From a virus (lineage: Duplodnaviria > Heunggongvirae > Uroviricota > Caudoviricetes): 36,875 nt of DNA. The stretch lies in the IMG/VR virus record IMGVR_UViG_2721755724_000003, one strand, 5' to 3'. Under the pieces are notes generated by a model, which was not told the DNA's origin, did no database searches, and was given only the letters and a program-made list of their open reading frames with translations. Shown one piece after another: positions 2,834-36,875 of this stretch; position 1 is the first letter of the stretch; every line of letters starts with the position of its first letter. The position numbers and the translations under genes were made by a program.

Positions 2834-2855
2834 TGGCGACAAAATGGCGGCAGCG
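2834..2855. repeat. att core direct repeat, ogr-proximal junction
   Basis: TGGCGACAAAATGGCGGCAGCG immediately outside the ogr stop; near-identical copy inside the int 3' end. Confidence 0.6.
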
Positions 2856-3074
2856 TCAAAGAGAGAGCGCCACCTGTCCTGATTTCATTGGATGCGGCTG
2901 AACTGGATTCGACTCTTTTGGTGTTGCAATCGAACGAACAAAAGTTTCATGGGTAACAAAAGTATGGCTGCAGTTAATGTTCTGGCACTGGTTATAACGC
3001 TCTTTGGTCAATGAAGATACCTGAAAACTGCTGCGAGTATGGGCGGCACTTCCACACAGTGGGCAAATCATCAT
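2856..3074 (-). CDS. ogr: Ogr/Delta/B-family zinc-finger late transcription activator
   Basis: CPLC...CxxxxC zinc-finger pattern and overall similarity to P2 Ogr as I recall it (about 72 aa). The ORF opens at GTG 3107; I chose ATG 3074 (MMICPLC), with ATG 3071 or 3092 as alternatives. Confidence 0.8.
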   Translation of the reverse strand: MMICPLCGSAAHTRSSFQVSSLTKERYNQCQNINCSHTFVTHETFVRSIATPKESNPVQPHPMKSGQVALSL

Positions 3075-3164
3075 TTTTCGAGTTCTCCCCATTTTTGCTA
3101 AATTCACAACAATGATACCGTATTATTCCATTTTGCAAACTTAAAAGTTCTCCATTGCGAAGAA

Positions 3165-4268
3165 TCATTCCATTTCGAAATCATCAATCCTCACTTCAAG
3201 CTCCAGACTGGTCGTAAAACCGTTATCCGGGCTGACGGTATGTGTCAGGGTGGTAATGGTCCATTCCGCATCATCTATCGGCTGTTTAAAACCACTGACC
3301 TTCACAGACATTTCCGTGTAGAGATCTGCCCGCCCTTCTGCCAGTTGTAGAGAAAATGACGCAACGCCGCGTTGCAGGCGTTCCCACTGCATTTTCGCCG
3401 CTCGTTCGGCGTTGCTCCGGTTGGCATAGGTGCGATTAAGTACCAGCACGTTTTCATCCGTACCCACCAGGTAATCGCCCTGCTTCGCTTCTGGCTCTTT
3501 CTTCTGCTTCTTAGTTCTGCGCTTACGCTTCACCGTGGTGCTTTCTTTCTTCGCAGGTTCGCGGGTATGCAACCAGCTGGCAATTACGCCCGTGTAGGCT
3601 CCGCGATCTGCCAGGGTAAATCGGTGACTGTCGCCGTCCTTGCGTGTGATAGTGATCACTGGCAGAGGTTTACCAGTGGCGCTTTTGCCCTGCCCCTGCC
3701 GGATGAATAACAGATTGCCATTTTTCACCGACGCGATGGCACCGTACTGTCTCGCCAGCCGCATCAGAAAACTGCCGTCACTCTCATTAGTCTGGTCTAT
3801 ATGCTCCACGGGCTTATCCGACAGGTCTTTACCCAGTGCCATCTTCAGCTTGTGCCGCGCGGCAATTTCCTGCACCACTTCCCCGACGGTGGTCTTATGC
3901 CACGATTTTTCACGGCGGGTATTCAGCGTTTCCCGAAAATCAGCACTTCGCGCCCGGATAGTCAGGCGGTCCGGTGCGCCAGTGTGTTCAATCTCGTCCA
4001 CTGTGAATGCCCCTTTCGGGAAAAGCGGCTGCCCCTTCCAGCCCAGCGCCAGCGTAATGACCGCACCACGGCGCGGCAGCACGATTTTTCCGTCAGCGTC
4101 ATCCAGCTCCAGATCAAGCTGGTCCGCTTCAAAGCCCCGGTTATCCGTCAGCGTCAAACTCATCAGGCGGTTATCCAGCACAGTGGTGATATCCCTGCCC
4201 TCAATACTGATGCTGAATGCGGGAGTTTTGTTGCCTTTGTTAAGCAGTTCAGAGCTGAAATTCACCAC
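3165..4268 (-). CDS. D: tail protein D (P2 gpD-like)
   Basis: 367-aa ORF in the gpD position between ogr and U; P2 synteny and size. Confidence 0.8.
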   Translation of the reverse strand: MVNFSSELLNKGNKTPAFSISIEGRDITTVLDNRLMSLTLTDNRGFEADQLDLELDDADGKIVLPRRGAVITLALGWKGQPLFPKGAFTVDEIEHTGAPDRLTIRARSADFRETLNTRREKSWHKTTVGEVVQEIAARHKLKMALGKDLSDKPVEHIDQTNESDGSFLMRLARQYGAIASVKNGNLLFIRQGQGKSATGKPLPVITITRKDGDSHRFTLADRGAYTGVIASWLHTREPAKKESTTVKRKRRTKKQKKEPEAKQGDYLVGTDENVLVLNRTYANRSNAERAAKMQWERLQRGVASFSLQLAEGRADLYTEMSVKVSGFKQPIDDAEWTITTLTHTVSPDNGFTTSLELEVRIDDFEME

Positions 4269-4747
4269 AGCAGCCCTCCCACCGTTTTACTGATATCGCT
4301 TAAGGCAGACGTTGCCGTGTCCTGCAGATTATTCAGTTGCGCACTGAGATCACCGAACATATCGGACAGGGATTCATCCACTCGTTTGAGCGACAGGGTG
4401 AACTCAATCCGGCGCGGCATACCGTCGCGGAAAAACTCCGTTTTAGTCTGATTCAGTCCCTCAATCACATACATACCGTAAATCGTGCCGCTGCCTTCAA
4501 TCAGGGGCCATGCTTTCCCCTGTTCTGCCATCTGCTCCAGTGCCAGCAACGACAGCCTGCCGCCTGTTATCTCCGGCATAAGAACACCGGAAAGCGTCAG
4601 CATGTCGTTTTCCGGTCCCAGAAACTGCGTGGACGGACGTCGGTTTACCCGACTGTTTGCCGCATGTCGCCAGCTGCGTTGATACTGCAGTTCCTGATAC
4701 GGCACGGTGCGCAGCATAAACACGTACAATCCCAGCACCATCATCAT
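4262..4747 (-). CDS. U: tail protein U (P2 gpU-like)
   Basis: 161-aa ORF between the tape measure gene and D; short overlaps with both neighbours. Confidence 0.8.
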   Translation of the reverse strand: MMMVLGLYVFMLRTVPYQELQYQRSWRHAANSRVNRRPSTQFLGPENDMLTLSGVLMPEITGGRLSLLALEQMAEQGKAWPLIEGSGTIYGMYVIEGLNQTKTEFFRDGMPRRIEFTLSLKRVDESLSDMFGDLSAQLNNLQDTATSALSDISKTVGGLLW

Positions 4748-7700
4748 GCGTCGTATCCCCCCTGATCGCTGTAGTTACTCCTGGCTTTTGCCTTCAGCCT
4801 GCGTTCACGTTCATCAAGCTGGCGTGCCACCTCCCGCGCAATATCCTGCGCACTTTGTCCTGGCTGCGTCTGAATGATGATCTGCGTCGGTGCCTCAATC
4901 CGTTGAACGAGCGGCACAGTGGCTGCGCGACTCACAATTGCTTCTCCACCTTTCGCGGGAAGTGCCAAAGGGTGCAACGGTGGAAGCTCTGCTGGCGCGG
5001 CAGCAACGCCCATCATTCCGGCAACAACGGCAGCCAGTGCAGCTGTATTTCTCCGGCTGGTCACATTTGCCGGGCCGTTAACAATTTCCGGCCCGTTTTC
5101 ACCGACGATGCCAAACTGCCCGCGCGGGATATACCCGCCGCTGTCATACATCCCCGCAAAGCCATATCCCCATGATGGAAAACCACCCGATGGCATCATC
5201 ACTTTACCGTCTGCATTCACCGTCGCAGGTTGCTGACGCGTCACGCTTTCCGGCAGTTTTGCCTTTGCGGCCTCTTTACTGACAATGCCGAGCTTCTCCA
5301 GCAACCAGGAAACGCCGGATTTCAGGGAGTCCAGCGGATGCATGACCATATTCAGCCCTTCCGCCAGTGCCTCCCCGAATCGCCGCCCCATTGCCGCTGC
5401 GCTCTGCAGTTCGGCAGAGGTCGACTTAACGGGCGTCAGCAGATCAGTAAACCAGCCCCACAGCGCCTGCACTTTGTCGCCAATCCACTGGAACACGGGC
5501 TTAAGCGGTTCGAACGCTGCACTGATGGGACCTGCCGCCGCTTTGAATCCTTCCACCACGCCACCGAGAAATGCGGTGATGGGTTGCCAGTATTTCCAGA
5601 CAACCAGCGCCACGCCCGCCAGTGCAGTAACCACAAGACCTATCGGACTGAGCAGAGCACCTAACAGACCAGATATGGCATACAGGGCAACGCGCAGCAT
5701 CGCCAGTGGACCAGATGCCAGTACTCGCAGCACCGTGCCTGCGGCGGCCAGTCCACCGCGCAGTACCGCCAGAGGATTCATAAACATCACAGCAACAGCA
5801 CGTAAACCGGATAATCCAGACCGCAAAAGTGCAACCGGCGCACCTGCTACAGTTTTCAGGACATTTCCCGTCAGTGATGCCGTGCGGCGCAAAGACGACA
5901 ACGGCGCAGTAAGTAAACCTGCGGCGTTGCCCGATGAAGCAAGCCCGCGTCGCAGCAGTGCCAGTGGTGCGCCAGCCAGCCAGGACAACGCGCTGCTGGT
6001 TCGAGTTACTGCTGCCGTAACGGAAGATAACGTTTTGATACCCAGCACAGAGAATCCCAGACGGATCACTGCCAGCGGCCCCAGCACTGCAGCCAGCGCC
6101 ACCGCTAAGGTGCCGAGGCCGACGGTAACCGCAGCCACAACAGCCGATGCTTTCATCAGTGTGCCTGTCAGTTCCGGGTTAGCTTCCACCCAGCGACGCA
6201 ACGCTCCCGTGACGCTTTTCACCGTGTACAGAATATCCATCAGCGGCTGGCGCAGCGTTTCGCCCAGGCTGCTGAAGGTGTTCTGCGCTCCGGTTTTGAC
6301 CAGCAACCACTGCGCAGAAAGTGAATCCTTGTTAATGTCGGATTCTTTCTGCATGGAGCCGAGCGCATCATTGCCCGCTGTCAGTTTTAACTGACGCTGC
6401 AGTTCCGGCAGGTTGTTTGCCAGTTTCGCCGCGTCATCGCCAAACTCTTTACCAAACAACATAGTCATGGCAGACAGGCGCTTGTCCTGCGGCAGCGCGT
6501 TTACCTTCTCCAGCACGCGCTGGATGGTTCCCATCGCATCCTTCGTCATCTGCTTTTCAATCACTTCAGGATTGAGTTTCAGCAGATTCATCCCTTCAAA
6601 GAAACTTTTGCTTTGCATGGTGGCAATGGACAATTCACGCACCATCGCGTTTGCTGCACTGGCTGCAACCTCTGGCGCAGCGCCCAGTGTCAGGAAGGTG
6701 GAACCCAGCGCCGCCGCTTTACGATAATCCAGACGGTCAGCCACACCGCCCAGACGTTGCATCACATCAATGATGTCTGCCCCTTTCGACATGGCGTTAT
6801 CATCCAGATAGTTCAGCGCATCACCGAGCTGTTCAATATTGCGGGTGGGGATTTTGTAGAGCTGGGCGATTTTCCCCAGACTTTCTGACAGTTCATCCGC
6901 TGGCAGCTCAAAGGCTGTTGCCGCCTTTGCTGCCGTACTGGCGAAGGCCAGCAGGTCACGTTTCTGATCTTCCCAACTGTCGTCAGGGTTTGCGACGTTC
7001 ATGCGCGCACCACCTTCAACCAGTGCAGCGAAATCCACCGCACCGTTTTCCATCGGCAACTGTTCGCTGGCAGCCTTGATGGCATCCTGCATTTCATAAA
7101 AACGTGCAGTGCGGTTGCCATTATCGTCACGCAGACCATTGACCTGCTTTGCCACACCTTTCATGGCATCTTCCATGCTGGTATAGCTTTTTACTGCCGC
7201 CATCACTGGTGCGCCCATTGCCAGCCCTGCAGCCGTGGTGGTGGCTCCGGCACCTGCAATACGATCACGCACCTCCAGCGAACGGGCATAACTGGCACGC
7301 GCTGCATTCATCCTGCGCTGAGCTTCCCCCAGTCGCTTCAGCCGCGCCTCCTGTTTCGAAAGTTCCTGGTTATAACGTGATGTTTCACGGGCTAAACGGG
7401 CAGTTGCTCCCGCATCGTCTTTCGCAGAAATTCCCGCCCGGTACAGTTCAGCACGCACAAGCGCCGTCTGCTGCTGCAGCTTTTTCTGGCGTTCTTCCAG
7501 GCGCTGAACAGCCAGCCGTTGACGGCCCAGAGCAACAACCTGACGTTGCGAAGGCGGCCCCATCGCTCCCAGTTCCTGACTGAGCAAATTTGCACGCTGG
7601 CGGGCATAGTTCAGCCTGTCGCCTAATTTCTGATTTTCTGCCTGCAGCTTTCGGAAGCTGTCCAGACTGCTCCCGGCCTGATCAAGCTGCTTTATTGCAT

Positions 7701-7821
7701 CGCGGGATTTTTTGACAGCAGCAGCCAGTTCTCTTGAACTGGCCTGCGCAGATCGAAATGGGCGGGTGAGCTTGTCAACCGCATTAAGAATGACCTGCAG
7801 ACGCAGGTTGTTATCACTCAT
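4744..7821 (-). CDS. T: tail tape measure protein (P2 gpT-like)
   Basis: 1025-aa ORF with coiled-coil-like N-terminal part and repeated Gly/Ala/Leu hydrophobic motifs (PLAxLRxGL-type), typical of tape measure proteins; correct position after E/E'. Confidence 0.85.
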   Translation of the reverse strand: MSDNNLRLQVILNAVDKLTRPFRSAQASSRELAAAVKKSRDAIKQLDQAGSSLDSFRKLQAENQKLGDRLNYARQRANLLSQELGAMGPPSQRQVVALGRQRLAVQRLEERQKKLQQQTALVRAELYRAGISAKDDAGATARLARETSRYNQELSKQEARLKRLGEAQRRMNAARASYARSLEVRDRIAGAGATTTAAGLAMGAPVMAAVKSYTSMEDAMKGVAKQVNGLRDDNGNRTARFYEMQDAIKAASEQLPMENGAVDFAALVEGGARMNVANPDDSWEDQKRDLLAFASTAAKAATAFELPADELSESLGKIAQLYKIPTRNIEQLGDALNYLDDNAMSKGADIIDVMQRLGGVADRLDYRKAAALGSTFLTLGAAPEVAASAANAMVRELSIATMQSKSFFEGMNLLKLNPEVIEKQMTKDAMGTIQRVLEKVNALPQDKRLSAMTMLFGKEFGDDAAKLANNLPELQRQLKLTAGNDALGSMQKESDINKDSLSAQWLLVKTGAQNTFSSLGETLRQPLMDILYTVKSVTGALRRWVEANPELTGTLMKASAVVAAVTVGLGTLAVALAAVLGPLAVIRLGFSVLGIKTLSSVTAAVTRTSSALSWLAGAPLALLRRGLASSGNAAGLLTAPLSSLRRTASLTGNVLKTVAGAPVALLRSGLSGLRAVAVMFMNPLAVLRGGLAAAGTVLRVLASGPLAMLRVALYAISGLLGALLSPIGLVVTALAGVALVVWKYWQPITAFLGGVVEGFKAAAGPISAAFEPLKPVFQWIGDKVQALWGWFTDLLTPVKSTSAELQSAAAMGRRFGEALAEGLNMVMHPLDSLKSGVSWLLEKLGIVSKEAAKAKLPESVTRQQPATVNADGKVMMPSGGFPSWGYGFAGMYDSGGYIPRGQFGIVGENGPEIVNGPANVTSRRNTAALAAVVAGMMGVAAAPAELPPLHPLALPAKGGEAIVSRAATVPLVQRIEAPTQIIIQTQPGQSAQDIAREVARQLDERERRLKAKARSNYSDQGGYDA

Positions 7822-8250
7822 CGTTGGCCCCGCTTCTCTGAATCGCTTTATACCGCCATTCCAGCACTTCGGTCAGCGGCATAACGTCAGTAACGGATGG
7901 CGGCCAGTGAAAAATGGTGGCGATATCTGCCACCAGATCGTCAACCGTCAGGCTGTCGGTAAACCGGCAAGCACCGACTTCTTCAACAAAAAAGTGACAA
8001 CCTCAACCGACATGGCAGTGAGATCTGCCGGGTCCATCTCTGCAATTTCCTGTGCAGTCAGTGCCGGACTGGAGATGCGGGGGATCACGATCATCATCGC
8101 GTTTACATCCATATCCATAATGGCCTGCAGGCGTATACCGCGCAGCGCACCGGACTGCGGTTTACGCAGCACAATTTCGGTGATTTCTGTTTTACCGCGC
8201 TTGATGGGGGTATCCAGTTGAATGGTCTTTTCAGTCTGCTTATCGCTCAT
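7814..8250 (-). CDS. E+E' tail chaperone fusion made by programmed -1 frameshift
   Basis: Minus-strand T TTT TTG at 7987-7993; the -1 frame stays open for 57 codons to a TGA at 7814-7816 that overlaps the T start codon, as in P2 E/E'. Confidence 0.7.
7948..8250 (-). CDS. E: tail assembly chaperone E (P2 gpE-like)
   Basis: 100-aa ORF directly upstream of T and ending ...TFLLKKS...; contains the slippery heptamer TTTTTTG near its 3' end. Confidence 0.8.
   Translation of the reverse strand: MSDKQTEKTIQLDTPIKRGKTEITEIVLRKPQSGALRGIRLQAIMDMDVNAMMIVIPRISSPALTAQEIAEMDPADLTAMSVEVVTFLLKKSVLAGLPTA
7987..7993 (-). other. slippery heptamer for the E/E' -1 frameshift
   Basis: Forward caaaaaa is TTTTTTG on the coding strand, in frame as T TTT TTG within E. 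Confidence 0.7.
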
Positions 8251-8304
8251 TTTGCTGTCCTGTCAATTGGGTTCTGGCGCGGTATCCCGCGCCGTTCAGA
8301 TATA

Positions 8305-8820
8305 TCAGAGGCCGAGGGCGTTGCGGTGCGCTTCCATCAGGTCCACACCGTCCACAATTTCCACCATGTTGATAAGGTCCACTTCATAGAGCACCTCACC
8401 ATTGATGGTCAGCTTCGCGTAGCTGTTGGTACTGGTCACTTTGGTGGTGTTGCTTTCGCCCGTCTTCCACTCGCCGGAATCCACTTCTTTGTGACGTCCA
8501 CGCACGACAAGCTCCACGGCCTGCACTTCCCCGGTATCGTCACGCTGAATAGAGCCGGTAAAGCGCAGCTGGATGCCATCCACCGTGGCTTTACCCATCT
8601 GTTTAAACAGCAGCAATTCAGTACCACCAATGGAAAATTCTGTGTCCAGCGCACTGTCATCAAGCCCCAGATCCACATCCACCGCACCCGGCATTCCGCC
8701 GCCGCGATACTTCTCATATTTGCGGGTAAATTTCGGCAGCGTCAGCGACTCAACGATCCCCTGCCAGTTGTTCCCGTCGTTAAACAGGTTCAGGTGTTTT
8801 AATTTGCGTGGTAAAGCCAT
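8305..8820 (-). CDS. FII: major tail tube protein (P2 FII-like)
   Basis: 171-aa ORF between the sheath gene and E; P2 synteny and size. Confidence 0.85.
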   Translation of the reverse strand: MALPRKLKHLNLFNDGNNWQGIVESLTLPKFTRKYEKYRGGGMPGAVDVDLGLDDSALDTEFSIGGTELLLFKQMGKATVDGIQLRFTGSIQRDDTGEVQAVELVVRGRHKEVDSGEWKTGESNTTKVTSTNSYAKLTINGEVLYEVDLINMVEIVDGVDLMEAHRNALGL

Positions 8821-8829
8821 GTTGTCCCC

Positions 8830-10002
8830 TTACGCGCTGACCTGGCTGGCGAAATTCACCAGGTACTGATCGGTGATGCGCTGACGCAGCATCAGGTTTT
8901 CAAGTGGCGGCACTGGCGTGTAGTCGTAGTCGATGGTGAGTTTTCCGGCTTTCAGCGTGTCTTTGTCGTTCACCGACTCATCCAGCCAGCAATCACCACC
9001 AATGAGATAGCCCTGACTGACCAGGCTGCGCATTTTGGCGCGGATACCTTCGATAATGTCGCGGGCCAGCGACGGGTTAAGCGGTTTATCCACCGCCCAC
9101 ATGTGTGCTTCTGCCATCGTGTCCATCAGCACCTGCGCCGTGCGGGTGTAGTTTTCGAAGGCAAAGAGCGGGTCATCACTCAGGCAGCGGGAACCCCAGA
9201 AGCGGAAACCGTCTTTACGCACAAGCGTGGTGACGTCGTTCTGGTTCAGCAGACCTGCATCGGTTGCCGGGTCCTGCAGATCCCAGAACACATCTGCAGA
9301 AATTCCGGTGACACCGTTCACGCCCACGTTGGACAGGCTTTTGTGCCATCCGGTCTGCTCGTCAATTTTGGCGCGCAGACCAAGCGCACGGGCGGTGGCA
9401 TATGCCGTTGCTTCGGCATTCAGCACCGTGTCCCAGCCAGTAAAGTCAGGCCAGATCAGCATCCCTTCGCGCTGGCTGAAGTTTTCGCGGTAAGTGATCG
9501 CCTCCTGCACTGTCTTGCAGCCATACGCTGACAGGTAAGCAAATCCACGCAGGCTTTGCGCCACGCTCAGCAACTCAGTAGCTACCGCCTTGGTGTCGTG
9601 GCCTGGCACGCCGAGAATGCGCGGTTTAACGCCGAGCTGTGACTGGGCAGATAACAGGGCTTTCATACCTGTTTTTTTACCTTCAGCAGTCACTGCGCCG
9701 ATGATATTGGTCGTGGTTTCGTCTTCCGTTTCACCCTGCGGCACACGCACAACAATGGTCACGGGTTTTGCCTGGTCAGCGATGGCATCCAGCGAACGGG
9801 CCAGAGTACCGGACTCACCCGCTTTACCGCTGGCAGTCAGCACATCAGTGATCAGCACGGGTTTATTAAGAGGAAACATTTTTGCATCGGCATCATCGCC
9901 CGTGCAGACCATACCCACGATGGCGGTGCTCACCGTGGTAATAGATCGGGTGCCTTCGTTGACTTCAACAACGCGCACCCCGTGGTGGTAATCCTGAGCC
10001 AT
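8830..10002 (-). CDS. FI: contractile tail sheath protein (P2 FI-like)
   Basis: 390-aa ORF upstream of FII; P2 FI is about 396 aa. Confidence 0.85.
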
Positions 10003-10078
10003 AGTGGCGAACCTCCTGATTGGATTAGGCTTCGCCCTATGTTGAAGTGATTGTGCCTGACAAACAGCTAAGCGCAGT

Positions 10079-10096
10079 TGTACCGTTATTCACACA
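10079..10096 (-). promoter_or_regulatory. candidate Ogr-dependent late promoter element upstream of FI (TGT-N12-ACA)
   Basis: TGTaccgttattcacACA about 85 nt upstream of the FI start; the same dyad motif recurs upstream of O and V. Confidence 0.45.
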
Positions 10097-10144
10097 AAAT
10101 GACGGTATTTGTCTGCTTTCAGGGATAATCAAAATAAAGCTGAT

Positions 10145-10717
10145 TCAGGGAGATTTATTGCTCTTATTTGCCGGAAATTTTCGATAAATGGTAGAAACGC
10201 CTACATCAAAAATCAGTGCAATACGCTGTCTTGATTCTCCGGCCTCGAGTAAACGTCCAATCTGTGCCCACTGTTCAGTGGTCAACTTAGGACGGCGTCC
10301 ACCTACTCTGCCTTTAGCACGAGCTGCAGCCAGCCCTGCCCGGGTACGTTCAACTATCAGTTCGCGTTCCATTTCAGCCAGGGCACCCATGACATGAAAA
10401 AAGAAACGGCCCATTGGGGTACTGGTATCAATACTGTCAGTCAGGCTTCGGAAATTCACACCACGCTGGCGCAACTCTTCTATCAGCGTAACAAGATGCC
10501 GCATACTGCGCCCCAACCTGTCCAGCTTCCAGACAACCAGCGTGTCTCCTGCCAATAGTGTCCTGAGCAGTTTTTTAAGCCCCGGTCTGTCGGACTTAGT
10601 GCCACTGATTTTGTCCTCAAAAATCCGCTCACATCCCGCGCAGTTCAGCGCATTACGTTGCAAATCGGTGTTCTGGTCATTTGTTGACACGCGTACATAG
10701 CCAATAAGCATGATCAT
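10145..10717 (-). CDS. serine DNA invertase (Hin/Gin/Cin/Pin family)
   Basis: 190 aa; N-terminal GYVRVSTNDQ catalytic-serine motif, VVWKLDRLGRS, and C-terminal HTH; very close to Hin/Gin as I recall them. Confidence 0.9.
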   Translation of the reverse strand: MIMLIGYVRVSTNDQNTDLQRNALNCAGCERIFEDKISGTKSDRPGLKKLLRTLLAGDTLVVWKLDRLGRSMRHLVTLIEELRQRGVNFRSLTDSIDTSTPMGRFFFHVMGALAEMERELIVERTRAGLAAARAKGRVGGRRPKLTTEQWAQIGRLLEAGESRQRIALIFDVGVSTIYRKFPANKSNKSP

Positions 10718-10738
10718 CTCCCTGAATAAAAATAGGGG

Positions 10739-11065
10739 ATGATGCCAGTTAGCCGTAATCGCTGCATTTTCTTAAACGTTGGTTTTGGAGAGCGGTTACT
10801 GGAGGCTGATGGGTACTTTGAATTACCGGGAGGATTGCTGCTGCAATGGGGGCACGGCTCGATTCATGCGTCAAGTGCCATTATACAGTTTAAGAAGTCG
10901 TTTAACGTCACTCCGTTCATTGTACTGCCGCATAAAATCACAACTGATGGTCGGTATGTGACGTCATCTAATTATACCTTAACTAGCTTTAGCCTTTATG
11001 GATGGAATGGAAACGGCACGGTAAACAATATTGACAGCTATACGTATTTTGCACTCGGGATGTAA
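10739..11065 (+). CDS. silent alternative tail-fibre C-terminal cassette
   Basis: ORF begins inside the crossover site; encodes ...VGFGERLLEADGYFELPGG..., parallel to the H C-terminus (...LGLGEAAK...WFRLPGG...). It would be fused to the H constant part after inversion. Confidence 0.55.
   Translation: MMPVSRNRCIFLNVGFGERLLEADGYFELPGGLLLQWGHGSIHASSAIIQFKKSFNVTPFIVLPHKITTDGRYVTSSNYTLTSFSLYGWNGNGTVNNIDSYTYFALGM
10769..10794. repeat. gix/cix-like crossover site, left boundary of invertible segment
   Basis: TTCTTAAACGTTGGTTTTGGAGAG, resembling the Gin gix site; inverted relative to the site at 11867-11892. Confidence 0.6.
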
Positions 11066-11093
11066 GAGAAAGCCGCGTAGAGCGGCTTTTTAT

Positions 11094-11519: not shown

Positions 11520-11521
11520 TT

Positions 11522-15416: not shown

Positions 15417-15420
15417 AAGA

Positions 15421-28026: not shown

Positions 28027-28069
28027 CTTTCCTCCTATGACACCACAAGAAATACTGTATGTATAACCA

Positions 28070-28085
28070 CTGTTTATATTTACAG
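28070..28085. promoter_or_regulatory. LexA operator (SOS box)
   Basis: CTGTTTATATTTACAG is a perfect CTGT-N8-ACAG with AT-rich spacer; a degenerate overlapping box (TACTGTATGTATAACCAC) lies at about 28053-28070; both sit in the promoter region of the 28026 ORF. Confidence 0.7.
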
Positions 28086-28179
28086 TATATAATAATCTTA
28101 CTGATGTAAAACGTTTTTTTACGTTCATCAGCCTGATATGCCTGGTATTATTAAGAGCACGAATTGTTAATCCGCGTAA

Positions 28180-30594
28180 TTAATACAGGTTCCGCCACTT
28201 ATCATCTTCCCGCAAACACTGGTTCCGATAGAAGATACGCAAGCCTGCTCCTGACGGAATACTGCCGCCGCGAAGGAGTAAATCGACCTCTTTCTCGCTA
28301 CCATCAAATCCTCTGGACTTCAGCTCATAGACGAGCTGCAGTCGCTGATGGTCTGTAATTCGCTGTTTGTAGTCTTTACGCCGTTTCGGTTTCACCAGGC
28401 GTAACCTTGCAGCCAGTTCCCGGCGCTCTTTTTTGTTCATACTGTGCAGGTAATCGTGCAACTCCTTGTCATCCATGCTGGTAATGTCCGTTCTGGGGTC
28501 CCCATCAGCTGATTTATCTTTCTCCTGTTGGTTCAAATTTTCAGCAAGGGGACAGTTATTGCCACGAGTCCAAGGGGCGCAAGCGCCCTGGTCGGCTGCC
28601 GCCTCCTGAATGTCAACGGCCTTACGAACCATTTTCCACTTCACGGCATGAGTGCAGATCTTGCCCTCTGCAATAGGTGACCAGATGCCATAAATACGAA
28701 TGCCGTGATCGCCATAGGCGGTCGGCTCTTCGTTGATTTCATAAGCAGTTCTGATGAGGTGATATTTGCGGGGAACCAGTACGCCGCCCTGCTTCATGAT
28801 GTAGGTGGCAAAACAACCAGCATCAGCAGCAGCCAGGATTGCATCAAGGCGCGGGTTATCCAGTACCGGCGCACCTGCTTTTTTGTCCCCCTGTTGCCTT
28901 GCCGCCTGACCAGCCAGCAATCGCAGTTCACGGTAAGCCTGACGCCCCGGAATGCCAAAGAAGCGGAATTGCTGAACACGATGCAGAGACGCCCAGGCAT
29001 TAACGTATTCAGCATTATCACGCAGGGATTTCCCCGTTTCCTTGCTGATCTCGCCAGCCAGACCACGCCCGTCAATGTTCTTACTGATGTATTTCGCGAT
29101 GTAGCTTGTTGGCGTACCTTTGCGCGGGTTAATCAACTCAGACTTAAAGCGCGGTCCAGTGTTATTGCCCAGCTCCTCGCGGTCTTCACGGATGGCAAAC
29201 TTACGCAGTAATGCAGTGATGGCGCGGCGGTCTTTTTTGCGCATAAAACACAACAGGTGCCAGTGAACTGTACCGTCATGATGCGGCTCAGCCACCCGCA
29301 CGCCATACCAGCGCAATCCGGCTTTGTGCATCGCCTTACGAAATGCAGCAAACATGCCGACCAGATAATCACTACTTTGTCTTACCGTCGCATTTGTCCA
29401 GGTTGGGTTGGGCCTGCCGTTATTTAGCGTGGAATGGAAACGTGACGGACAGGTGATGGTGTAGAAAACGGCGCAGTCACCGCGCATTTCCGCGATAAGC
29501 TCCAGACCTTTAACACAGGCCATCATCTCATTGCGGCGATGCGCAGGGTTGCTGCTGCTGGCGTTTACCACATCCTCCATGTCCAGCGTGTCGCCGTCTT
29601 CGTTCACCAGTTCATGAGAACGGAAAAACTCCAGCGACTTACGGCGCTGCTCACGTTTATGCATCACGGCTTCATAGCTGACATAAGGAGATGCTTTTTT
29701 GCTAACCAGGCAGACAGCGCGCAACTGCTCTTCCCGCCATTCGCAACGCATCTTCCATAATTTCCGATACCACCAGTCAGCGCACAACATACGCGCCAGC
29801 GAACCCGGAATGAGTTCATAGGGCACGGGTTTACGGCGGTTTCTTTTCCGGCGGAGTTGCTCAAACGCAGGCGGGATGACATCCAGACGCAGGGTTTCCG
29901 CTGCCACCTTTTCCCATGTATTGCGGATTTCTTCTGGCTTAACGTCATCGGTGACATACAAATCGCCACAAGCTACATCAAGGCACATGCTCATATGCGC
30001 AGCGACAAGGGTAGACAAGCGTTTCACCTGATCCTGACTCATTTCAGGCAGGATCAGCAGGCCGTCCAGCCCTTCATGGCTTGCCATAAAGCGAAAAGAA
30101 GTGGATAGCTGACTGTCGCGTACATGCTCCAGTCGTTCCAGACATGGCTTAATCGTCTCACGCAAATAGCGGGAATAAGCCTTTGGCCTGCCCAGGCTGC
30201 TGAAGTATTCAATACGTTGCATCAGCGGCTTGCTGATATGGGAAGGCTGGGCATTGACGTCCGCCAGAATGACCATGTCCGGGTTAAAACGCTGCTGCTC
30301 ATGCGCCAGCTTTGCCCGACTAATGAGCTTATCCTGCTCCATTTCGCGCTGGACAGGATCACGGGATTCATTAAAGAAATAACGCTCCCAGACCTGATCA
30401 CTCAGCGCCTCACGGCGCAGCTGTTCCTGCTCGTTATCGGCAGCGTACAGAGTGATCAGATTTGAAAGCGCAGAAACCGGCGCAACTTCCGCCGGGTCCA
30501 GATAAGGGTTAATGGCCTTTTTCGGGCTGTTCCATGAGAATGCTGCGGCGACCTCGTTAAAGCCGCTAGAGTTGCTCATATCGTCATGACTCAT
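28180..30594 (-). CDS. A: replication initiation endonuclease (P2 gpA-like rolling-circle initiator)
   Basis: 804-aa ORF with a YIAKYISK-type tyrosine motif; position matches A of P2/186. Confidence 0.85.
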
Positions 30595-31448
30595 ACACGC
30601 ACCTCGTACACAGCAGAACTATCCACGCCACGCGAAGGATCAAATCCCACCCAGCAGCGCGCCCCAGAAACAGCAATGATTTCTGTTGCAGATTTACTCT
30701 CGCCAGCCGACACGCCGATGCTGCGTTTTGCCTTGATGTAGTGGTGAGTAAAATTGCGATACAGCGAACGGATCAGGGATGTGTCACTGTTAGAAACAAT
30801 GACCGGATGTCCTTCTGATGACCGATGTTCAAGAACAGATGCCAGGTGATACTGGTCATCTTCAGTGAAGCCGTCAGTGTGATAGCCGGAAAACGTACCG
30901 TCATACGGCGGATCGCAATACACCACATCCCCCGCCTTCAACATCGCCAGCGTTTCATCAAAGCTGGCGCAGATAAACGTTGCTCGCTGGGCCTTTTCTG
31001 CAAATGCGCGAATTTCTTTTTCAGGGAAATACGGATTTTTATAATTACCGTAGGGAATGTTGAAATGCCCGCTCTTGTTATAGCGACATAAACCACGGTA
31101 ACCGTGACGATTGAGATACAGGAAATATACCGCTTTCATGAAATCAGTAATTTCAGTTGAGTAATTAAACTCCTGCCTTATGTTGTAATAAGCCACCTCC
31201 CTGTTTGCTTCCTCAAATAAAGCTCTGGCGCGAGATATAAACGATTCACAATCAGCGGCAACCTTTTTATAGAGGTTGATTAAATCAGGATTAATATCCG
31301 CAACCAGATAGCTGGGATAATCCGTCTCCATCATCACAGCACAGGAACCCGCGAAAGGTTCAACCAGTCGCGGGCCAGCAGGAAGATGTTTTTTCAGTTC
31401 GGACATTATGGCAGTTTTATTTCCCGCCCATTTCAGGATGGTGCTCAT
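30591..31448 (-). CDS. dam: DNA adenine methyltransferase (Dam-like, N6-adenine)
   Basis: Start placed at ATG 31448 ([11 protein letters not shown]...), overlapping the upstream stop as ATGA; ILKWAGNK and DPPY motifs characteristic of Dam-family methyltransferases. Confidence 0.8.
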
Positions 31449-31672
31449 ACAGCACCTCCGTTGTAATGTTTGCCTTTCAGCTCTGCGATTTCCTGACAGG
31501 TAATGCAAAGCTGCACACCCGGAATGGCACGGCGACGTGCTGGCGGAATTGGCGCTTCACACTCAATGCAAAGCACGCGGGACACGCCCGGTGTTTTGGC
31601 GCGGGCAGCACGGATATGACGCTGGCGTTCTTCTTCAACGCGCTGCTGTACGAGATCCATTGCATCAGCCAT
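31445..31672 (-). CDS. TraR/DksA-family C4 zinc-finger protein
   Basis: 75 aa with CIECEAPIP...CITCQ four-cysteine zinc-finger pattern. Confidence 0.7.
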   Translation of the reverse strand: MADAMDLVQQRVEEERQRHIRAARAKTPGVSRVLCIECEAPIPPARRRAIPGVQLCITCQEIAELKGKHYNGGAV

Positions 31673-31911
31673 TAGTGGATCTCCTGCGCTTCGTTCTGGA
31701 TTGCTTCAGCGGTCACACGCAGCAGTTCTGCTGCTTCGACGTGGTTTAGCTGGCGGGATGTGATATGACACGCCAGGCTATCAAGGCGGGCAGCCATTGC
31801 CTCAGCCCTTGCCCGACGTTCTTCAAGACGGGCCTCTGTCAGTAAAATATTAAGCCCTACGTCATCCGGTCCGGTTTTAGTCGTGAGGGTTTCAATATTA
31901 CGCATAATCAA
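31672..31911 (-). CDS. hypothetical early-region phage protein
   Basis: 79-aa ORF packed in the early operon; no motif recognised. Confidence 0.5.
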   Translation of the reverse strand: MIMRNIETLTTKTGPDDVGLNILLTEARLEERRARAEAMAARLDSLACHITSRQLNHVEAAELLRVTAEAIQNEAQEIH

Positions 31912-31972
31912 TTCTCCTGAATTTAGATAAAGGGATGCCCGGCGGGTTTACGCCATGATTTTCATTAATTGG

Positions 31973-32314
31973 TTAATTCGGCATGGTTAGCCGTCTGGGA
32001 AATAAGCTCACCACTGCACGAAAATGATTCATTGCTTTAATCAGCTCCCGCTTTTCGTCAGTGGTCAGCTCATTAATGCTGATGCTATGACGTTCAGCTG
32101 GAATTTTTGCCATAAAGAATATGGCAGCTAGTGCCCGTTTATTTTGTTCATTATTGATATCCCGTGGATCACGCATATCTTTAATAAACCGCTCAAGCTC
32201 TGACTCAATATTCAGGCCAAAAACTTTCGCCCTTAATTCCGCTATGTGATTAAGTCCATTCAGGCGTTCACCGGGGCTTAATGGAACAGTCGCCGCAGCG
32301 CCATTAATTGCCAT
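31973..32314 (-). CDS. hypothetical early-region phage protein
   Basis: 113-aa ORF in the early operon; no motif recognised. Confidence 0.5.
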   Translation of the reverse strand: MAINGAAATVPLSPGERLNGLNHIAELRAKVFGLNIESELERFIKDMRDPRDINNEQNKRALAAIFFMAKIPAERHSISINELTTDEKRELIKAMNHFRAVVSLFPRRLTMPN

Positions 32315-32336
32315 AATTCATATCCCCAAAACGCAA

Positions 32337-32561
32337 CTATCGTTCTTTGTTCTTACGGTAACGCTCAAGGGGAGATACATTTTTTCGTACCGTCTCTTTA
32401 ACCTGCTCTCCCCGTAAAAACGTCCCATCCTTTAGCGTGAAAAAGTAACTGCCATCGCCCGACAACGACGGATAACAACAGAGCAAATCATCTTCAGGTA
32501 CTGAATAACTCTCCCCTCTGTAACGAAACTGATAAACCACTTCACTTTCCGCTGCATACAT
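32337..32561 (-). CDS. hypothetical early-region phage protein
   Basis: 74-aa ORF with a GGAG ribosome-binding site about 9 nt upstream; an in-frame stop just upstream fixes its start. Confidence 0.5.
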   Translation of the reverse strand: MYAAESEVVYQFRYRGESYSVPEDDLLCCYPSLSGDGSYFFTLKDGTFLRGEQVKETVRKNVSPLERYRKNKER

Positions 32562-32728
32562 TTTGACTTTCTCCGTTTCCTCGTGGTCAATTCAGACAGC
32601 AATTCATCTTGTGAATGACATGGATGCCAGCGTTTACCATCCTCACCCATGATCCAGCCGTGACCGTAGTGCATTGCCGGGCTTTGTTTTACCAGCAGCG
32701 ATGCAAATGATGGTTCTTTCGTCAGCAT
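32432..32728 (-). CDS. hypothetical protein overlapping the previous ORF in another frame
   Basis: ATG 32728 with a GAGGTG ribosome-binding site directly after the cII stop; the C-terminal 45 aa look like out-of-frame basic low-complexity sequence and overlap 32337-32561. Confidence 0.3.
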   Translation of the reverse strand: MLTKEPSFASLLVKQSPAMHYGHGWIMGEDGKRWHPCHSQDELLSELTTRKRRKSKCMQRKVKWFISFVTEGRVIQYLKMICSVVIRRCRAMAVTFSR

Positions 32729-32735
32729 AAGCACC

Positions 32736-33245
32736 TCACAGCAAACCGAATGAAGCACCGAGGCCAGTCACGGTATCAACTGCACTCGCCATCGCAGGAT
32801 TAGCCTGTAAACGGGCCTGCAATGAAACAGCCGCCAGCGCCATCAGTCGTGTTACAGAATTAATGCTGCTGATCGCATCGCGACGGCCTGCACTGGTTTT
32901 TACATCGCCAGAAACCGCACCTGCAGCAACACGCCCGATCTCTGCGGTTGCACTCATGACGTAATGTGGCAGTCTCTCTTTTGCCACCTCATTTACCGGT
33001 ATACATGGCAGGCAGTGAATCTGAGCCAGAAATCCATCAACCAGTGTTGGGTCTTCAGTGAGATCGGTTAACTGCCAGATATCTGACGCAGTAAGTTGGT
33101 GTGGTTGTTCCGGGTTGAGCTTGTTACGCAAGGTTTGAACGTTCATACCTGCGCGCTCTGCCAGCTTCGCCATGTTGTGTCGTAGGGCGAAGGCCCGGCA
33201 GGCTTCATTGAAATGGGGATGTTTTGAAATGCGATAGTCAAACAT
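32736..33245 (-). CDS. cII: 186 CII-like lysogeny establishment regulator
   Basis: 169 aa (the same length as 186 CII) with an N-terminal HTH-like region; position after apl. Confidence 0.7.
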   Translation of the reverse strand: MFDYRISKHPHFNEACRAFALRHNMAKLAERAGMNVQTLRNKLNPEQPHQLTASDIWQLTDLTEDPTLVDGFLAQIHCLPCIPVNEVAKERLPHYVMSATAEIGRVAAGAVSGDVKTSAGRRDAISSINSVTRLMALAAVSLQARLQANPAMASAVDTVTGLGASFGLL

Positions 33246-33277
33246 AGTCAGTTGCTCCGTGAAGTCTCAAAATGGAA

Positions 33278-33499
33278 CTAGTTGATAGTCACGTTGCAAT
33301 CAGAGAGGGCATCGATCGTCATCGCAGCAATGTTAATCATCACTTTTTCACGCTTTTTATCCTTACGTAGGCGATGACGAGGCAAACGCCCATCTGCAAG
33401 CATGTCGTTAATTGTGTCGATAGATAAGCCAGTGAGTTCACTATATCTTTCTATAGTAACGTGGGGGGTGATGAGAGTGATTGAAATGTTAGGTCTCAT
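33278..33499 (-). CDS. apl: Apl/Cox-like excisionase-repressor
   Basis: Small HTH protein divergent from cI; start placed at ATG 33499 (MRPNISITL...), since the longer ORF begins with TTG. Confidence 0.6.
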   Translation of the reverse strand: MRPNISITLITPHVTIERYSELTGLSIDTINDMLADGRLPRHRLRKDKKREKVMINIAAMTIDALSDCNVTIN

Positions 33500-33624
33500 G
33501 ATGCAACATTCCTCTTTTAGCAATGATTAATCAGGATGAATACTGATCGTTTGTATTATGTGAACACTGCAAACATACGATCACATCATGAAATCGTCAA
33601 GGTAAAAGTTCACTTGGAGTGACC

Positions 33625-34188
33625 ATGAATTTGGAAAAAGGCGGTCGTGGGGCCATAGAGCGCATGGTTGAAGCCTATGGTTTCAAGACAAGACAAGCTT
33701 TGTGTGATCATTTGGGCATTTCTAAAAGCACCTTAGCCACGCGCTATATGCGTGATTCATTCCCGGCAGAATGGGTAATCCAATGTGCACTTGAAACCGG
33801 CACGTCGCTAGAGTGGCTAACTACTGGGCAAGGTTCAAAAGAAAGTTCACAAAAAGAAAACACAAAAGAGATCGAAAGGAAGATTTTATCAAGCGGAAAA
33901 CTACTTCCTGATGGTTACTACATTTTCGACAACAACTTTTTGCCTGAAAAACTAAAAAAACCTTTTGTTGTGATCGATGGCGCATCAGAGTTTATCTGTG
34001 ATTCGGATTATGAGGATGTACGTGATGGTAAGTGGATCGTTGATATTGATGGCGAGGTTGCTATCAGGAATCTGACAAGACTGCCGGGACGTCGTCTAAA
34101 TGTCGATGGCGGCAGCAGTTCCTTTGAATGCAAAATAGATGAAATTGATATCATAGGAAAAATTAGAAGCGCGATCGTCAATTATTAA
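33625..34188 (+). CDS. cI: 186-type CI immunity repressor
   Basis: About 187 aa with an N-terminal HTH ([20 protein letters not shown]) and a C-terminal domain; start at ATG 33625 with GGAG upstream (the ORF track opens at GTG 33619). Confidence 0.75.
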
Positions 34189-34211
34189 AATTAATGTATA
34201 AGGAAATAAAT

Positions 34212-34397
34212 ATGTTTTATAAATCTATACATATCCTACTTATTTGTTTATTTATTACGTTACCTATTACAAGTTTTGCAAAAAATTATCCATGTTCTGG
34301 TAAGAAAGGGGGAGTTTCACATTGTACATCTGATGGGAAGTTCGTTTGCAATGATGGAACGCAAAGCAAGTCAAAGAAAATATGTTCTAAAAACTAA
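34212..34397 (+). CDS. small secreted Cys/Lys-rich peptide
   Basis: Start at ATG 34212 with an AAGGA ribosome-binding site; signal peptide [23 protein letters not shown], then a mature part of about 38 aa with four cysteines. Confidence 0.5.
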
Positions 34398-34408
34398 GGT
34401 TGCTTCAT

Positions 34409-35740
34409 ATGAATAATGATATGACTTTTGAAAACAGAGATGAGTATAATAGAAAAATCATTGCTGAAAAAATAATAAGCTTACTCGAGTCCCCCTTAAA
34501 AATATCCCCTATTGTTATCGATGGGGACTGGGGTACCGGTAAAACCGAATTTTCAAAAAAATTAGCGGCATTGATTGAAAAAAATGAATCTGGGCATAAA
34601 GTAGTATATATTGATGCATTTACTGAAGATCATAATGATGCTCCCATACTTACTATAATGGCTGCAATAGTTGCATTATATCCAGAGAGTGAAAAGAAGG
34701 AATTAATATCAAAGGCATTACCAGCATTGAGATTTGGACTTAAAACTGTACTCAAAGCTGGCGCTGGGTGGATTTTAAAACAAAATGCAGATGATATTGC
34801 GGATGAATTCGAAGATGCTATTAAAGATGCGGCTAACTCAGCTATAGATGGTACTGTAGAAGCACTGCTTGATGATCATATTGAAGCAAAGAAACATTTG
34901 CTTGCTCTCAAGGAAGTACTTGCTGAACTAACTAGCGAAAATAAAATAACAATTATCATTGACGAACTTGACCGTTGTAAACCAAGCTTTGCCATCTCTA
35001 TCATCGAAAATATAAAACATGTTTTTGACACTGAAAATCTTAACTTCTTGTTAGTTGCTAACATCTCACAATTGAAAGCATCAATAAATCATATTTACGG
35101 TGCAGGTGTTGACTCAGAAAGATATCTTGATAAATTTATAAAATTCACTTACAGCCTGCCAGTGACTTTCACTGAAAACAATTACGATAAAATTTTGGCT
35201 TCGAACTCTCATTTTAGAATGCTATGTAACGAGTCTGAAAGACTAAAAGAAATTGGAGAAAGTAGTATTCATATAGTTCAAAAATTTATCGAACTAAAAG
35301 GCTTGTCGCTACGGGAAGTTGAAACCTTATCAAGATATCTAGAAATTTATCAAATTTTATCTCAAAATGAAATCAGCAATAAATTTATACCAGGCTATTG
35401 CTGTTATCGAACCCTTGCAGTAATTCTTTATTCGTTTGGTCGTGAACTGGCCCTTAACTACGTAGAAGATAAAATAGATGCACAATTAATAATCAATTTC
35501 TTCGGTGTTAATAGACTCCCATATCAGACAGATCAATATAACATCAACATCTACTATTATGCATTATTTGGTATAACTTATAAATATATGCCAGAAGGTT
35601 CTCCTTTACTTCCTTCTGAAAACGATGAAAAAAACAGATGGGCTGAAATAAGTGATTATCATATTTTAAAAGGAAATGCAGGTGTAGAAGACCCTGTTAG
35701 AATATTCAAAAACACCTTAAAAGTTTTCTTGCTCCAATGA
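34409..35740 (+). CDS. KAP-family P-loop NTPase
   Basis: Walker A GDWGTGKT, a YIDAF motif after it (KAP proteins have NAW-like motifs there) and Walker B IIIDELDRC; AT-rich; sits between cI and int. Confidence 0.7.
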   Translation: MNNDMTFENRDEYNRKIIAEKIISLLESPLKISPIVIDGDWGTGKTEFSKKLAALIEKNESGHKVVYIDAFTEDHNDAPILTIMAAIVALYPESEKKELISKALPALRFGLKTVLKAGAGWILKQNADDIADEFEDAIKDAANSAIDGTVEALLDDHIEAKKHLLALKEVLAELTSENKITIIIDELDRCKPSFAISIIENIKHVFDTENLNFLLVANISQLKASINHIYGAGVDSERYLDKFIKFTYSLPVTFTENNYDKILASNSHFRMLCNESERLKEIGESSIHIVQKFIELKGLSLREVETLSRYLEIYQILSQNEISNKFIPGYCCYRTLAVILYSFGRELALNYVEDKIDAQLIINFFGVNRLPYQTDQYNINIYYYALFGITYKYMPEGSPLLPSENDEKNRWAEISDYHILKGNAGVEDPVRIFKNTLKVFLLQ

Positions 35741-35797
35741 AATGTTTGATTGAAGATCTTTAAACATTGACCACTGTTCAAACATACAGTTAAATTT

Positions 35798-35822
35798 AGT
35801 CCTCAGACATGAGGACTTTTTT
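35798..35822 (+). terminator. rho-independent terminator abutting the int start codon
   Basis: Stem agtcctca / tgaggact with a 4-nt loop, followed by TTTTTT, then ATG at 35823. Confidence 0.55.
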
Positions 35823-36875
35823 ATGGCAGTACGAAAACTCAACACAGGTAAATGGATTTGTGAATGCTACCCCGCCGGGCGCAATGGGCGGCGTGTGCGT
35901 AAGCAGTTTGCAACTAAGGGTGAAGCATTGGCTTTTGAGCGTCACACGATGGAAGAAACCGGAGCAAAACCCTGGCTGGGTGAATCAGTGGATCGTCGAA
36001 CACTGAAAGACGTGGTTGAGCTATGGTTCAAACTACATGGTAAATCTCTGACGGCTGGGCAGCATGTCTATGACAAATTGCTGTTGATGGTTGACGCTCT
36101 GGGAAATCCCATTGCAACCGATCTCACCTCTAAAATGTTTGCCCACTATCGAGATAAACGCCTGACAGGAGAGATCTACTTCAGCGAAAAATGGAAGAAA
36201 GGAGCAAGCCCGGTCACCGTTAACCTGGAGCAAAGCTATCTAAGTAGTGTTTTTAGCGAACTATCCCGCTTGGGCGAATGGTCGTATCAGAACCCACTGG
36301 AGAACATGCGAAAATTCACCATCGCAGAAAAAGAGATGGCATGGCTTACCCATGAACAGATTGTTGAATTGCTGGCTGATTGCAAACGTCAGGACCCAAT
36401 TCTGGCACTGGTAGTCAAGATATGCTTAAGCACAGGCGCACGCTGGCGAGAAGCAATAAATCTTACCCGTTCACAGGTGACTAAATACCGAATTACCTTT
36501 GTCAGAACGAAGGGGAAGAAAAACAGAAGCATTCCCATCAGTAAAGAGCTTTACGAAGAGATCATGGCACTTGATGGGTTCAATTTCTTTACAGACTGCT
36601 ATTTTCAATTTTTATCCGTGATGGAAAAAACGTCTATCGTGCTCCCTCGCGGTCAACTGACACACGTTCTGCGTCATACGTTTGCGGCGCATTTTATGAT
36701 GTCGGGTGGAAACATCCTGGCCTTACAAAAAATTCTCGGGCATCACGATATAAAAATGACGATGCGTTACGCACATCTGGCACCGGATCATCTGGAAACG
36801 GCGCTCCGTTTCAATCCTCTTGCAACGCTGCCAAGTGGCGACAAAGTGGCGGCAGCGGTTGGCATTACCCCGTAA
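35823..36875 (+). CDS. int: tyrosine integrase (P2/186 Int-like)
   Basis: 350 aa with C-terminal HxxR and RYAHL catalytic-tyrosine motifs; the att core repeat lies in its last codons; the stop is the final triplet of the window. Confidence 0.85.
   Translation: MAVRKLNTGKWICECYPAGRNGRRVRKQFATKGEALAFERHTMEETGAKPWLGESVDRRTLKDVVELWFKLHGKSLTAGQHVYDKLLLMVDALGNPIATDLTSKMFAHYRDKRLTGEIYFSEKWKKGASPVTVNLEQSYLSSVFSELSRLGEWSYQNPLENMRKFTIAEKEMAWLTHEQIVELLADCKRQDPILALVVKICLSTGARWREAINLTRSQVTKYRITFVRTKGKKNRSIPISKELYEEIMALDGFNFFTDCYFQFLSVMEKTSIVLPRGQLTHVLRHTFAAHFMMSGGNILALQKILGHHDIKMTMRYAHLAPDHLETALRFNPLATLPSGDKVAAAVGITP
36836..36857. repeat. att core direct repeat, int-proximal junction
   Basis: TGGCGACAAAGTGGCGGCAGCG within the last codons of int; pairs with the 2834-2855 copy. 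Confidence 0.6.

Follow-up and report, generated by a model that had tools for sequence, protein, structure and literature searches.

In phage lambda the phage attachment site, attP, spans ~200-240 bp, whereas the bacterial site, attB, is short; attP comprises a P arm, a core and a P' arm with arm-type sites for the integrase (Int) and sites for integration host factor (IHF), and a heterobivalent Int bridges arm sites and core across the bent DNA. In phage P2, whose arms each bear a tandem pair of repeats at 11-bp spacing, the order is ogr, P' arm, core, P arm, int, and for 186-type Int an arm-site consensus, tgccGCCActt, has been published together with three N-terminal positions proposed as possible discriminators between 186-type and P2-type arm recognition (PMC3448106). 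The record of phage 186 itself marks YAYCGCCAYTY sequences as 'predicted' Int arm-type sites, three to the left of attP and two to its right. The P2-like prophages Rybb*W, Rybb*B (with retron Ec86) and Rybb*Cr have been described as inserted in the non-coding RNA gene rybB (PMC3032704), and the same gene is 'hotspot #29', where 109 genomes hold Felsduovirus prophages (PMC10121019); the portions of these two papers drawn on here give the locus, with arm sites unmentioned. Integration site and arm-site architecture are thus already established for this phage group. Here we analysed a stretch of 36,875 nucleotides (IMG/VR virus record IMGVR_UViG_2721755724_000003; below, the window) that carries a P2/186-like prophage, and in particular a 22-bp direct repeat near both prophage ends that a preliminary description had taken for the att core. 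What emerges as mildly new is descriptive: in this lineage the predicted P-arm sites lie inside the int open reading frame (ORF), and the edges of the attP cassette may be recurrent breakpoints for cargo.

The repeat has the form TGGCGACAAA(A/G)TGGCGGCAGCG. A scan of the window recovered two plus-strand copies, TGGCGACAAAATGGCGGCAGCG at 2834-2855 and TGGCGACAAAGTGGCGGCAGCG at 36836-36857, identical at 21/22 positions as first reported; there was no third copy in the window even at ≤3 mismatches, and 100 dinucleotide-preserving shuffles of the window gave 0 matches, with none expected by chance. The left copy is non-coding and directly adjoins the stop codon of ogr, which lies on the minus strand and ends at 2856, while the right copy is embedded in the final codons of int, with 18 nt from there to the end of the stop codon. 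Each 22-mer consists of two tandem TGGCGRC heptamers at 11-bp spacing, in the same orientation on both arms, and the sole mismatch between the copies sits in the 4-nt spacer separating the heptamers. Apart from the two 22-mers, the tandem pattern TGGCG[AG]C-N4-TGGCG[AG]C did not occur in the window. As set out below, the 22-mers are very probably arm-type Int binding sites, a prediction from sequence comparison, and they bracket a different, 26-bp core.

To locate the junctions, window positions 2300-3100 were compared by megablast with 5,426 complete E. coli genomes. The ybjL part was matched in 5,418 of these, and the ogr junction was covered in only 1,114; in the ~4,300 genomes without it, the alignment stopped at query positions 479-491, corresponding to window 2778-2790, and left host homology ends at 2790 at the latest. 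About 1,115 of the 5,426 genomes carry a P2-like prophage here. Two empty sites between ybjL and rcdA, from strains CRE1493 (L001; ...GGTTGATGGGTTTTTTGTTATCTAAAACTTATCTACTACCC...) and PMV-1 (L002; ...GGTTGATGGGTTTTTTGTTGCCTGAAATTTATCTACTACCC...), contained no copy of the 22-mer. Each of them holds one copy of a 26-bp sequence, ATGGGTTTTTTGTTGCCTGAAATTTA in the window and ATGGGTTTTTTGTT(G/A)(C/T)CT(G/A)AAA(T/C)TTA in degenerate form, which is also found once in the attP of KP12 (deposited as a Klebsiella phage) and at the attR of strains G3 and UMNK88. Across attL, attR, attB and attP the copies of this core are 22-26/26 identical, their left 14 bp are invariant, and the core coincides with the switch from host to phage homology. 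Comparison with an uninterrupted ybjL-rcdA region, the check proposed in the preliminary description, therefore went against the 22-mer as att core on both counts: the 22-mer was missing and the junctions lay elsewhere.

The window stops exactly at the int stop codon, so that the right prophage-host junction falls outside it. In strain G3, the closest relative (99.9% identity over the last 876 bp, with a near-identical int), the int stop is followed by 74 bp, ATGGGTTTTTTGTTATCTAAAATTTA and then the rcdA flank, and the same order is seen in UMNK88 and in several IMG/VR contigs. From the near-identical prophages L003, L012 and L030 together with KP12, we infer that the attR core of this genome lies ~74 bp past the window end; the prophage unit, from core-start to core-start, would then measure about 34,185 bp, provided that the flank beyond the window is like that of the relatives. 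After excision the predicted attP would read ...CCAAGTGGCGACAAAGTGGCGGCAGCGGTTGGCATTACCCCGTAA, 74 bp, ATGGGTTTTTTGTTGCCTGAAATTTA, AGATGTTTAAAATC..., TGGCGACAAAATGGCGGCAGCG, TCA (the ogr stop), and the predicted attB ...GGTTGATGGGTTTTTTGTT(A/G)(T/C)CT(A/G)AAA(C/T)TTATCTACTACCC... UMNK88 has the same rcdA and ybjL protein alleles as the empty strain CRE1493, and in UMNK88 the right half of the core is of the CRE1493 type, ATCTAAAACTTA, at attR and of the phage type, GCCTGAAATTTA, at attL. Because attL has the phage-type and attR the host-type right half, crossover would fall inside the invariant left 14 bp of the core or at their right edge.

Several further observations concern the att sites. 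Two attB alleles occur in E. coli (L001 2965-2990 versus L002 2965-2990): the former has four differences from attP in the right half of the core (ATCTAAAACTTA), and the latter, the PMV-1 type, equals attP over all 26 bp (GCCTGAAATTTA). In one IMG/VR contig (L090, IMGVR_UViG_2747842661_000007, ~2620-2650) the same int and P arm are followed by a different right flank, ...CATAAATGG|TTATTTTTTTAGCCGGAAATTCA; the junction is ~20/26 similar to the core by manual count, the flank had no match in E. coli genomes, and a secondary or other-species att site is possible. In Enterobacteriaceae RIT714 (L015) and Raoultella planticola (L016), degenerate P'-arm-like repeats occupy the place of the expected host DNA on the right side of the core, and may represent tandem or remnant elements at the site. 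Finally, nearly all IMG/VR contigs with this int (L031-L110) stop, like the window, exactly at the int stop codon, which implies that callers trimming prophages to gene ends systematically lose the last ~100 bp, that is the P arm and the attR core.

The left half of the core belongs to a host gene. RybB was found at full length at 2700-2778 (Rfam RF00110, score 105.3 bits, gathering score 40, model 1-79/79), and the core begins with the final 14 nt of rybB, comprising the descending arm of its terminator, whose hairpin folds at -23.3 kcal/mol, and the U-tract. These 14 nt are identical in attP, so that the lysogen retains an intact rybB. In the phage they contribute the 3' half of a small hairpin (-9.0 kcal/mol), with a U-tract behind it, just after int; this is plausibly the int terminator. 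Thus, the prophage is integrated at the 3' end of the small RNA (sRNA) gene rybB, between ybjL and rcdA, and this 3' end is the functional analogue of a tRNA-gene att site, a tRNA-style strategy applied to an sRNA gene. The placement of a ~34-kb prophage downstream of ybjL, in the intergenic region shared with ybjK (rcdA), was borne out by the lysogen loci, where rcdA was found just past the position at which the window ends; a tRNA scan of the window returned no tRNA gene, and the statement that the target is something other than P2 locI or a tRNA gene likewise held. The intergenic placement could be narrowed to the 3' end of rybB, whereas the 22-mer boundaries did not survive: the left homology switch is at 2778-2790, and the DNA following the right copy is phage DNA that is present in KP12. 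The published rybB prophages resemble this one in locus, in P2-like genes and in carrying one or two cargo or defence loci, and differ in that cargo genes vary by strain (PMC3032704, PMC10121019). The UTI89 prophage PhiECO5, analysed in PMC3448106, was considered as a further rybB insertion and rejected, as it sits at serS-dmsA; the set of that paper may therefore contain no rybB prophage.

We also examined the phage form of the site. The Int of KP12 is 98% identical in protein sequence to that of the window, with the same C-terminus, and its DNA runs without interruption from the int 3' end with TGGCGACAAAGTGGCGGCAGCG through GGTTGGCATTACCCCGTAA, 74 bp, the core, 43 bp and TGGCGACAAATTGGCGGCAGAG to the ogr stop. 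The contiguous attP thus holds two copies of the 22-mer, 161 bp apart, which bracket the core at 92 bp on the int side and at 43 bp on the ogr side; two IMG/VR contigs show this same layout. It follows that the int 3' end is phage-encoded and that integration leaves the int reading frame untouched, and the earlier placement of the core inside the int 3' coding end is contradicted, with the KP12 int C-terminus encoded by the phage and the crossover elsewhere.

The sequence of the repeats matches the published consensus of 186-type Int arm sites. In reverse complement each 22-mer reads TGCCGCCA(C/T)TT followed by TGTCGCCA(C/T)(T/C). When aligned manually with tgccGCCActt, TGCCGCCACTT agreed at 11/11 positions and TGCCGCCATTT and TGTCGCCACTT at 10/11 each; against YAYCGCCAYTY of 186, these three agreed at 10/11 each and TGTCGCCATCG at 8/11. 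Two heptamers per arm, 11 bp apart, fit the 186-type arm-site definition (PMC3448106), and the 186 sites themselves (L007) are 11-12 bp apart and oriented relative to int as in the window. Consistent with this motif, the window Int shares 56% identity with 186 Int and 40% with a P2-type Int, and at the three proposed discriminator positions it carries W11/E14/Y16 where the P2-type Int has Y/D/R. An inverted CGCCA motif, GAGCGCCACCT, lies at 2865-2875 in the ogr 3' end, 23 bp past the second P' heptamer, and an inverted arm-like site likewise follows the two P' sites of 186, PHB48 and MHG51; the motif is probably dispensable, because it is absent in G3, where cargo directly follows the 22-mer.

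Compared with the attP of 186 (Eganvirus), the locus thus has an Int of the same family with 186-type N-terminal residues, an arm motif with the same CGCCA/TGGCG core in tandem on both sides of the att core, IHF-like consensus matches at positions comparable to the IHF footprints that flank the 186 core, a core that lies at the 3' end of a gene for a small stable RNA, and 186-type CI and CII. It differs from 186 in its target (rybB sRNA here, tRNA-Ile, ileY, in 186), in having 2+2 clear arm sites instead of 3+2, in a P' arm only 43 bp from the core, and in the position of the int-side sites, which lie inside the int ORF here and are separated from int by orf69 in 186; moreover, Apl sites are found in 186 and were not identified here. 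With P2 it shares P2-like structural genes as well as the order and the paired arm repeats described above, while the P2 arm motif is of the TGTGGACA type instead of TGGCGRC, immunity is C/Cox instead of 186-type CI/CII, and the integration site is another. Lambda Int is of a lineage unrelated at family level, and arm motif, site number and arrangement differ from those seen here.

A comparison of diverged loci indicates that the sequence of the 22-mers and their distance to the core are conserved irrespective of the surroundings. In UMNK88 (L012, reverse-complement 36202-36680) int is present as another allele with an earlier end (...NPLATLEV*), an inserted hypothetical ORF of 110 aa separates this shorter int from the P-arm 22-mer, and the sequence from the 22-mer through to the core is unchanged, the former int tail now being non-coding. 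P-arm sites are non-coding at the same 92-bp distance in other species too, where int ends earlier. In G3 (L030, reverse-complement 334-1600) ~1.25 kb of cargo separates the P' 22-mer from ogr and includes a truncated, retron-like gene with a reverse-transcriptase domain; the 22-mer is still 43 bp from the core. ESSI2_ev040, with an 85% identical Int, has non-homologous P' flanks with an Abi gene as neighbour and keeps TGGCGACAAAATGGCGACAGCG 43 bp from the core, and in its int, substitutions in flanking and spacer positions change S to N and V to M and leave the heptamers untouched. Neither the 92-bp nor the 43-bp spacing is altered in any of these three. We further ran a pattern search with one genome per species, in which the gap between arm pair and core was allowed to vary over 80-110 bp; it returned 15 species in ~9 genera, and the arm-to-core span was exactly 128 bp in 15/15. 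In an alignment of 21 rows, made up of these 15 matches and six other fetched loci, upstream sequence was unrelated in at least 8/21 rows and homology began just before the first heptamer. Outside the rybB group, PHB48 and MHG51 (56% Int identity, 186-like tRNA-Ile core) carry tandem TGGCGRY in the int 3' end and again beyond the core. In a P2-type phage both arms bear tandem TGTCCACA instead, so that the motif tracks the Int N-terminal type in a small sample of six 186-type phages with TGGCG and one P2-type phage with TGTCCACA. Together, these comparisons suggest that the constraint on the 22-mer acts on the DNA and not on the coding sequence, and that it is tied to the core.

The same loci raise a more tentative idea, which we consider possible and well short of probable: the 205-bp attP would behave as a rigid cassette whose outer edges are recurrent breakpoints for gene gain, and the P-arm sites within the int ORF could feed back on int expression. 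Cargo abuts the arm pairs as the 110-aa ORF in UMNK88, the reverse-transcriptase remnant in G3 and the Abi gene in ESSI2_ev040, and in several genera unrelated sequences lie upstream of the arm pair. If the idea were correct, Int bound to its own 3' coding end could in principle regulate its own gene. The retron-like gene of G3 recalls retron Ec86 of the E. coli B rybB prophage, as reported for Rybb*B (PMC3032704).

Between arms and core, matches to the IHF consensus with ≤1 mismatch recurred in four diverged attP versions at positions 63 (-), 82 (-) and 151 (+), three against 0.34 expected (P ~0.006, at consensus level only). The last corresponds to window 2801-2813 and is a perfect consensus match in L014. 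Over 205 bp the predicted attP would therefore be laid out as two arm sites, two IHF-like sites, the core, one IHF-like site and two arm sites, which parallels the annotated attP of 186. In the mechanism we propose, strand exchange would occur at the 26-bp core, with the P arm (int side) and the P' arm (ogr side) at the distances given above; the paired heptamers, one helical turn (11 bp) apart, would be bound by the N-terminal domain of a heterobivalent Int, and Int molecules would bridge arm sites and core, aided by DNA bending at the intervening IHF-like sites, to assemble an intasome of ~205 bp as in 186, P2 and lambda.

Three other explanations of the repeat were weighed against its reading as paired Int arm sites. 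Had the 22-mer been the att core, the prophage would end at 2834 and 36857 and the int codons downstream of the core would be host DNA; a 21/22 direct repeat near both prophage ends, beside ogr and in int and far beyond chance, speaks for this. It is nevertheless hardly credible at all, as no copy of the 22-mer is present in the empty sites, 44-56 bp separate the end of host homology from the left copy, the KP12 attP contains the sequence that follows the right copy (GGTTGGCATTACCCCGTAA...), which is therefore phage and not host DNA, attP has two copies and not one, and a different 26-bp repeat satisfies the relationship among attL, attR, attB and attP. A functionless relic, such as an int 3' end that was duplicated in a past illegitimate recombination event, or a resemblance due to coding constraints, would account for the fact that one copy encodes the Int tail SGDKVAAA, a tail found in some relatives, yet the ogr-side copy is non-coding, and the int-side copy is non-coding but unchanged in UMNK88 and several other species. 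Amino-acid changes surround invariant heptamers, at least 15 species keep exactly the same distance to the core, and the 22-mer persists amid non-homologous surroundings in ESSI2_ev040 and G3, all of which makes a relic or a coding effect very unlikely.

Nor do we give much credence to the heptamers as sites for an excisionase or switch protein analogous to Apl or Cox, an explanation we hold to be about as improbable as the relic. It is favoured by 186, in which Apl binds five annotated sites in the int-side arm of attP, and by the repeats here being likewise tandem, 11 bp apart and in the arms. However, their sequence fits the Int arm consensus and not a separate motif; they occur on both arms, whereas the Apl sites of 186 occur on one only; Apl of 186 also binds the pR-pL switch, yet no TGGCGRC is present in the switch region 33524-33618; and the motif type follows the N-terminal type of Int, albeit in a small sample. 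The P-arm repeat AACTTATTGTTTT was tried as an excisionase site and rejected, with 17 loose matches window-wide against ~12 expected and 0 in the pR-pL switch 33524-33618; the AACTTATTGTTTT repeats fit the IHF consensus better. Several points weigh against the Int arm-site reading itself. Int binding to the 22-mers, and their part in recombination, are predicted from sequence comparison, and the arm sites of 186 are labelled 'predicted' in that phage's own record. The arm and core columns of the multi-species alignment were set by the search pattern, which leaves only the spacing, the intervening blocks and the homology boundary free of this bias, and the 80 Int-selected IMG/VR loci, at 97-99% identity, carry little independent information. 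The attR of this genome is outside the window and was deduced from close relatives, the IHF assignment rests on one-mismatch consensus matches, and no excisionase sites of the kind expected from 186 were identified.

The distinction has practical consequences. Taking the 22-mers as boundaries misplaces the left prophage end by 69 bp and the right one by 114 bp, and wrongly implies that integration rewrites the integrase C-terminus. A direct repeat near both prophage ends is not necessarily an att core, for the arm-type sites of a heterobivalent integrase give the same signature. The predicted attP and attB junction sequences would be needed for excision PCR, for prophage curing and for integration tools based on attP and Int. 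The features of the locus are collected in Table 1.

Table 1. Positions of host, attachment-site and prophage features in the window.
Feature	Position	Strand	Basis or remark
ybjL (aspartate:alanine antiporter), left-flank host gene	935..2620	+	ORF; ybjL annotation in homologous loci
rybB sRNA gene, complete with intrinsic terminator	2700..2778	+	Rfam RF00110
attL core ATGGGTTTTTTGTTGCCTGAAATTTA	2765..2790	+	26-mer common to empty sites, attR of relatives and KP12 attP
Prophage DNA within the window (P2/186-like, Peduoviridae)	2791..36875	.	Gene content; right end inferred from relatives
Candidate IHF site, P' arm, AATCATGATGTTA	2801..2813	+	1 mismatch to WATCAANNNNTTR
P' arm, two tandem predicted 186-type Int arm-type sites	2834..2855	+	Heptamers 2834-2840 and 2845-2851; 43 bp from core
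ogr, late-gene activator, Ogr/Delta zinc finger	2856..3074	-	Pfam PF04606, 6.7e-22
186-type CI repressor	33619..34188	+	Pfam Phage_CI_repr and Phage_CI_C; annotation
KAP-family P-loop NTPase, cargo between cI and int	34400..35740	+	Pfam KAP_NTPase 3.8e-51
int, 186-type tyrosine integrase, 350 aa	35823..36875	+	Pfam Int_N and Phage_integrase
P arm, two tandem predicted 186-type Int arm-type sites	36836..36857	+	Heptamers 36836-36842 and 36847-36853; 92 bp from core

Among the P2-family genes, Pfam identified Ogr, the gpA replication protein and Int in the window, and for the homologous prophages of UMNK88 and G3 the annotation shows a complete P2-like gene order. The mechanical ORF of ogr reaches 3107, and both of these strains annotate a 219-bp gene. 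A small ORF at the apl/cox position (33278-33523) matched no Pfam family. Two low-GC cargo loci were seen. The first, an island at 24200-27306 (GC 0.32-0.35) between the portal gene and the DinI/gpA genes, encodes a 353-aa PIN_12-domain protein and a 525-aa protein with TPR and LA2681-like HEPN domains; it appears to be a variable cargo site, because UMNK88 and G3 hold other genes between gpA/DinI and portal. No PADLOC system was matched in this island, and its PIN_12 and HEPN proteins may be a candidate undescribed defence or toxin pair. The second, at 34194-35740 between cI and int, consists of a 67-aa ORF with no family match and the KAP-family NTPase (GC 0.35), which matches the PADLOC candidate system PDC-S20 at 1.1e-171. 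Finally, a serine recombinase gene at 10145-10717 on the minus strand (Resolvase and HTH_7 domains, Gin/Cin-like) adjoins convergent tail-fibre assembly genes, a context that suggests an invertible tail-fibre segment.

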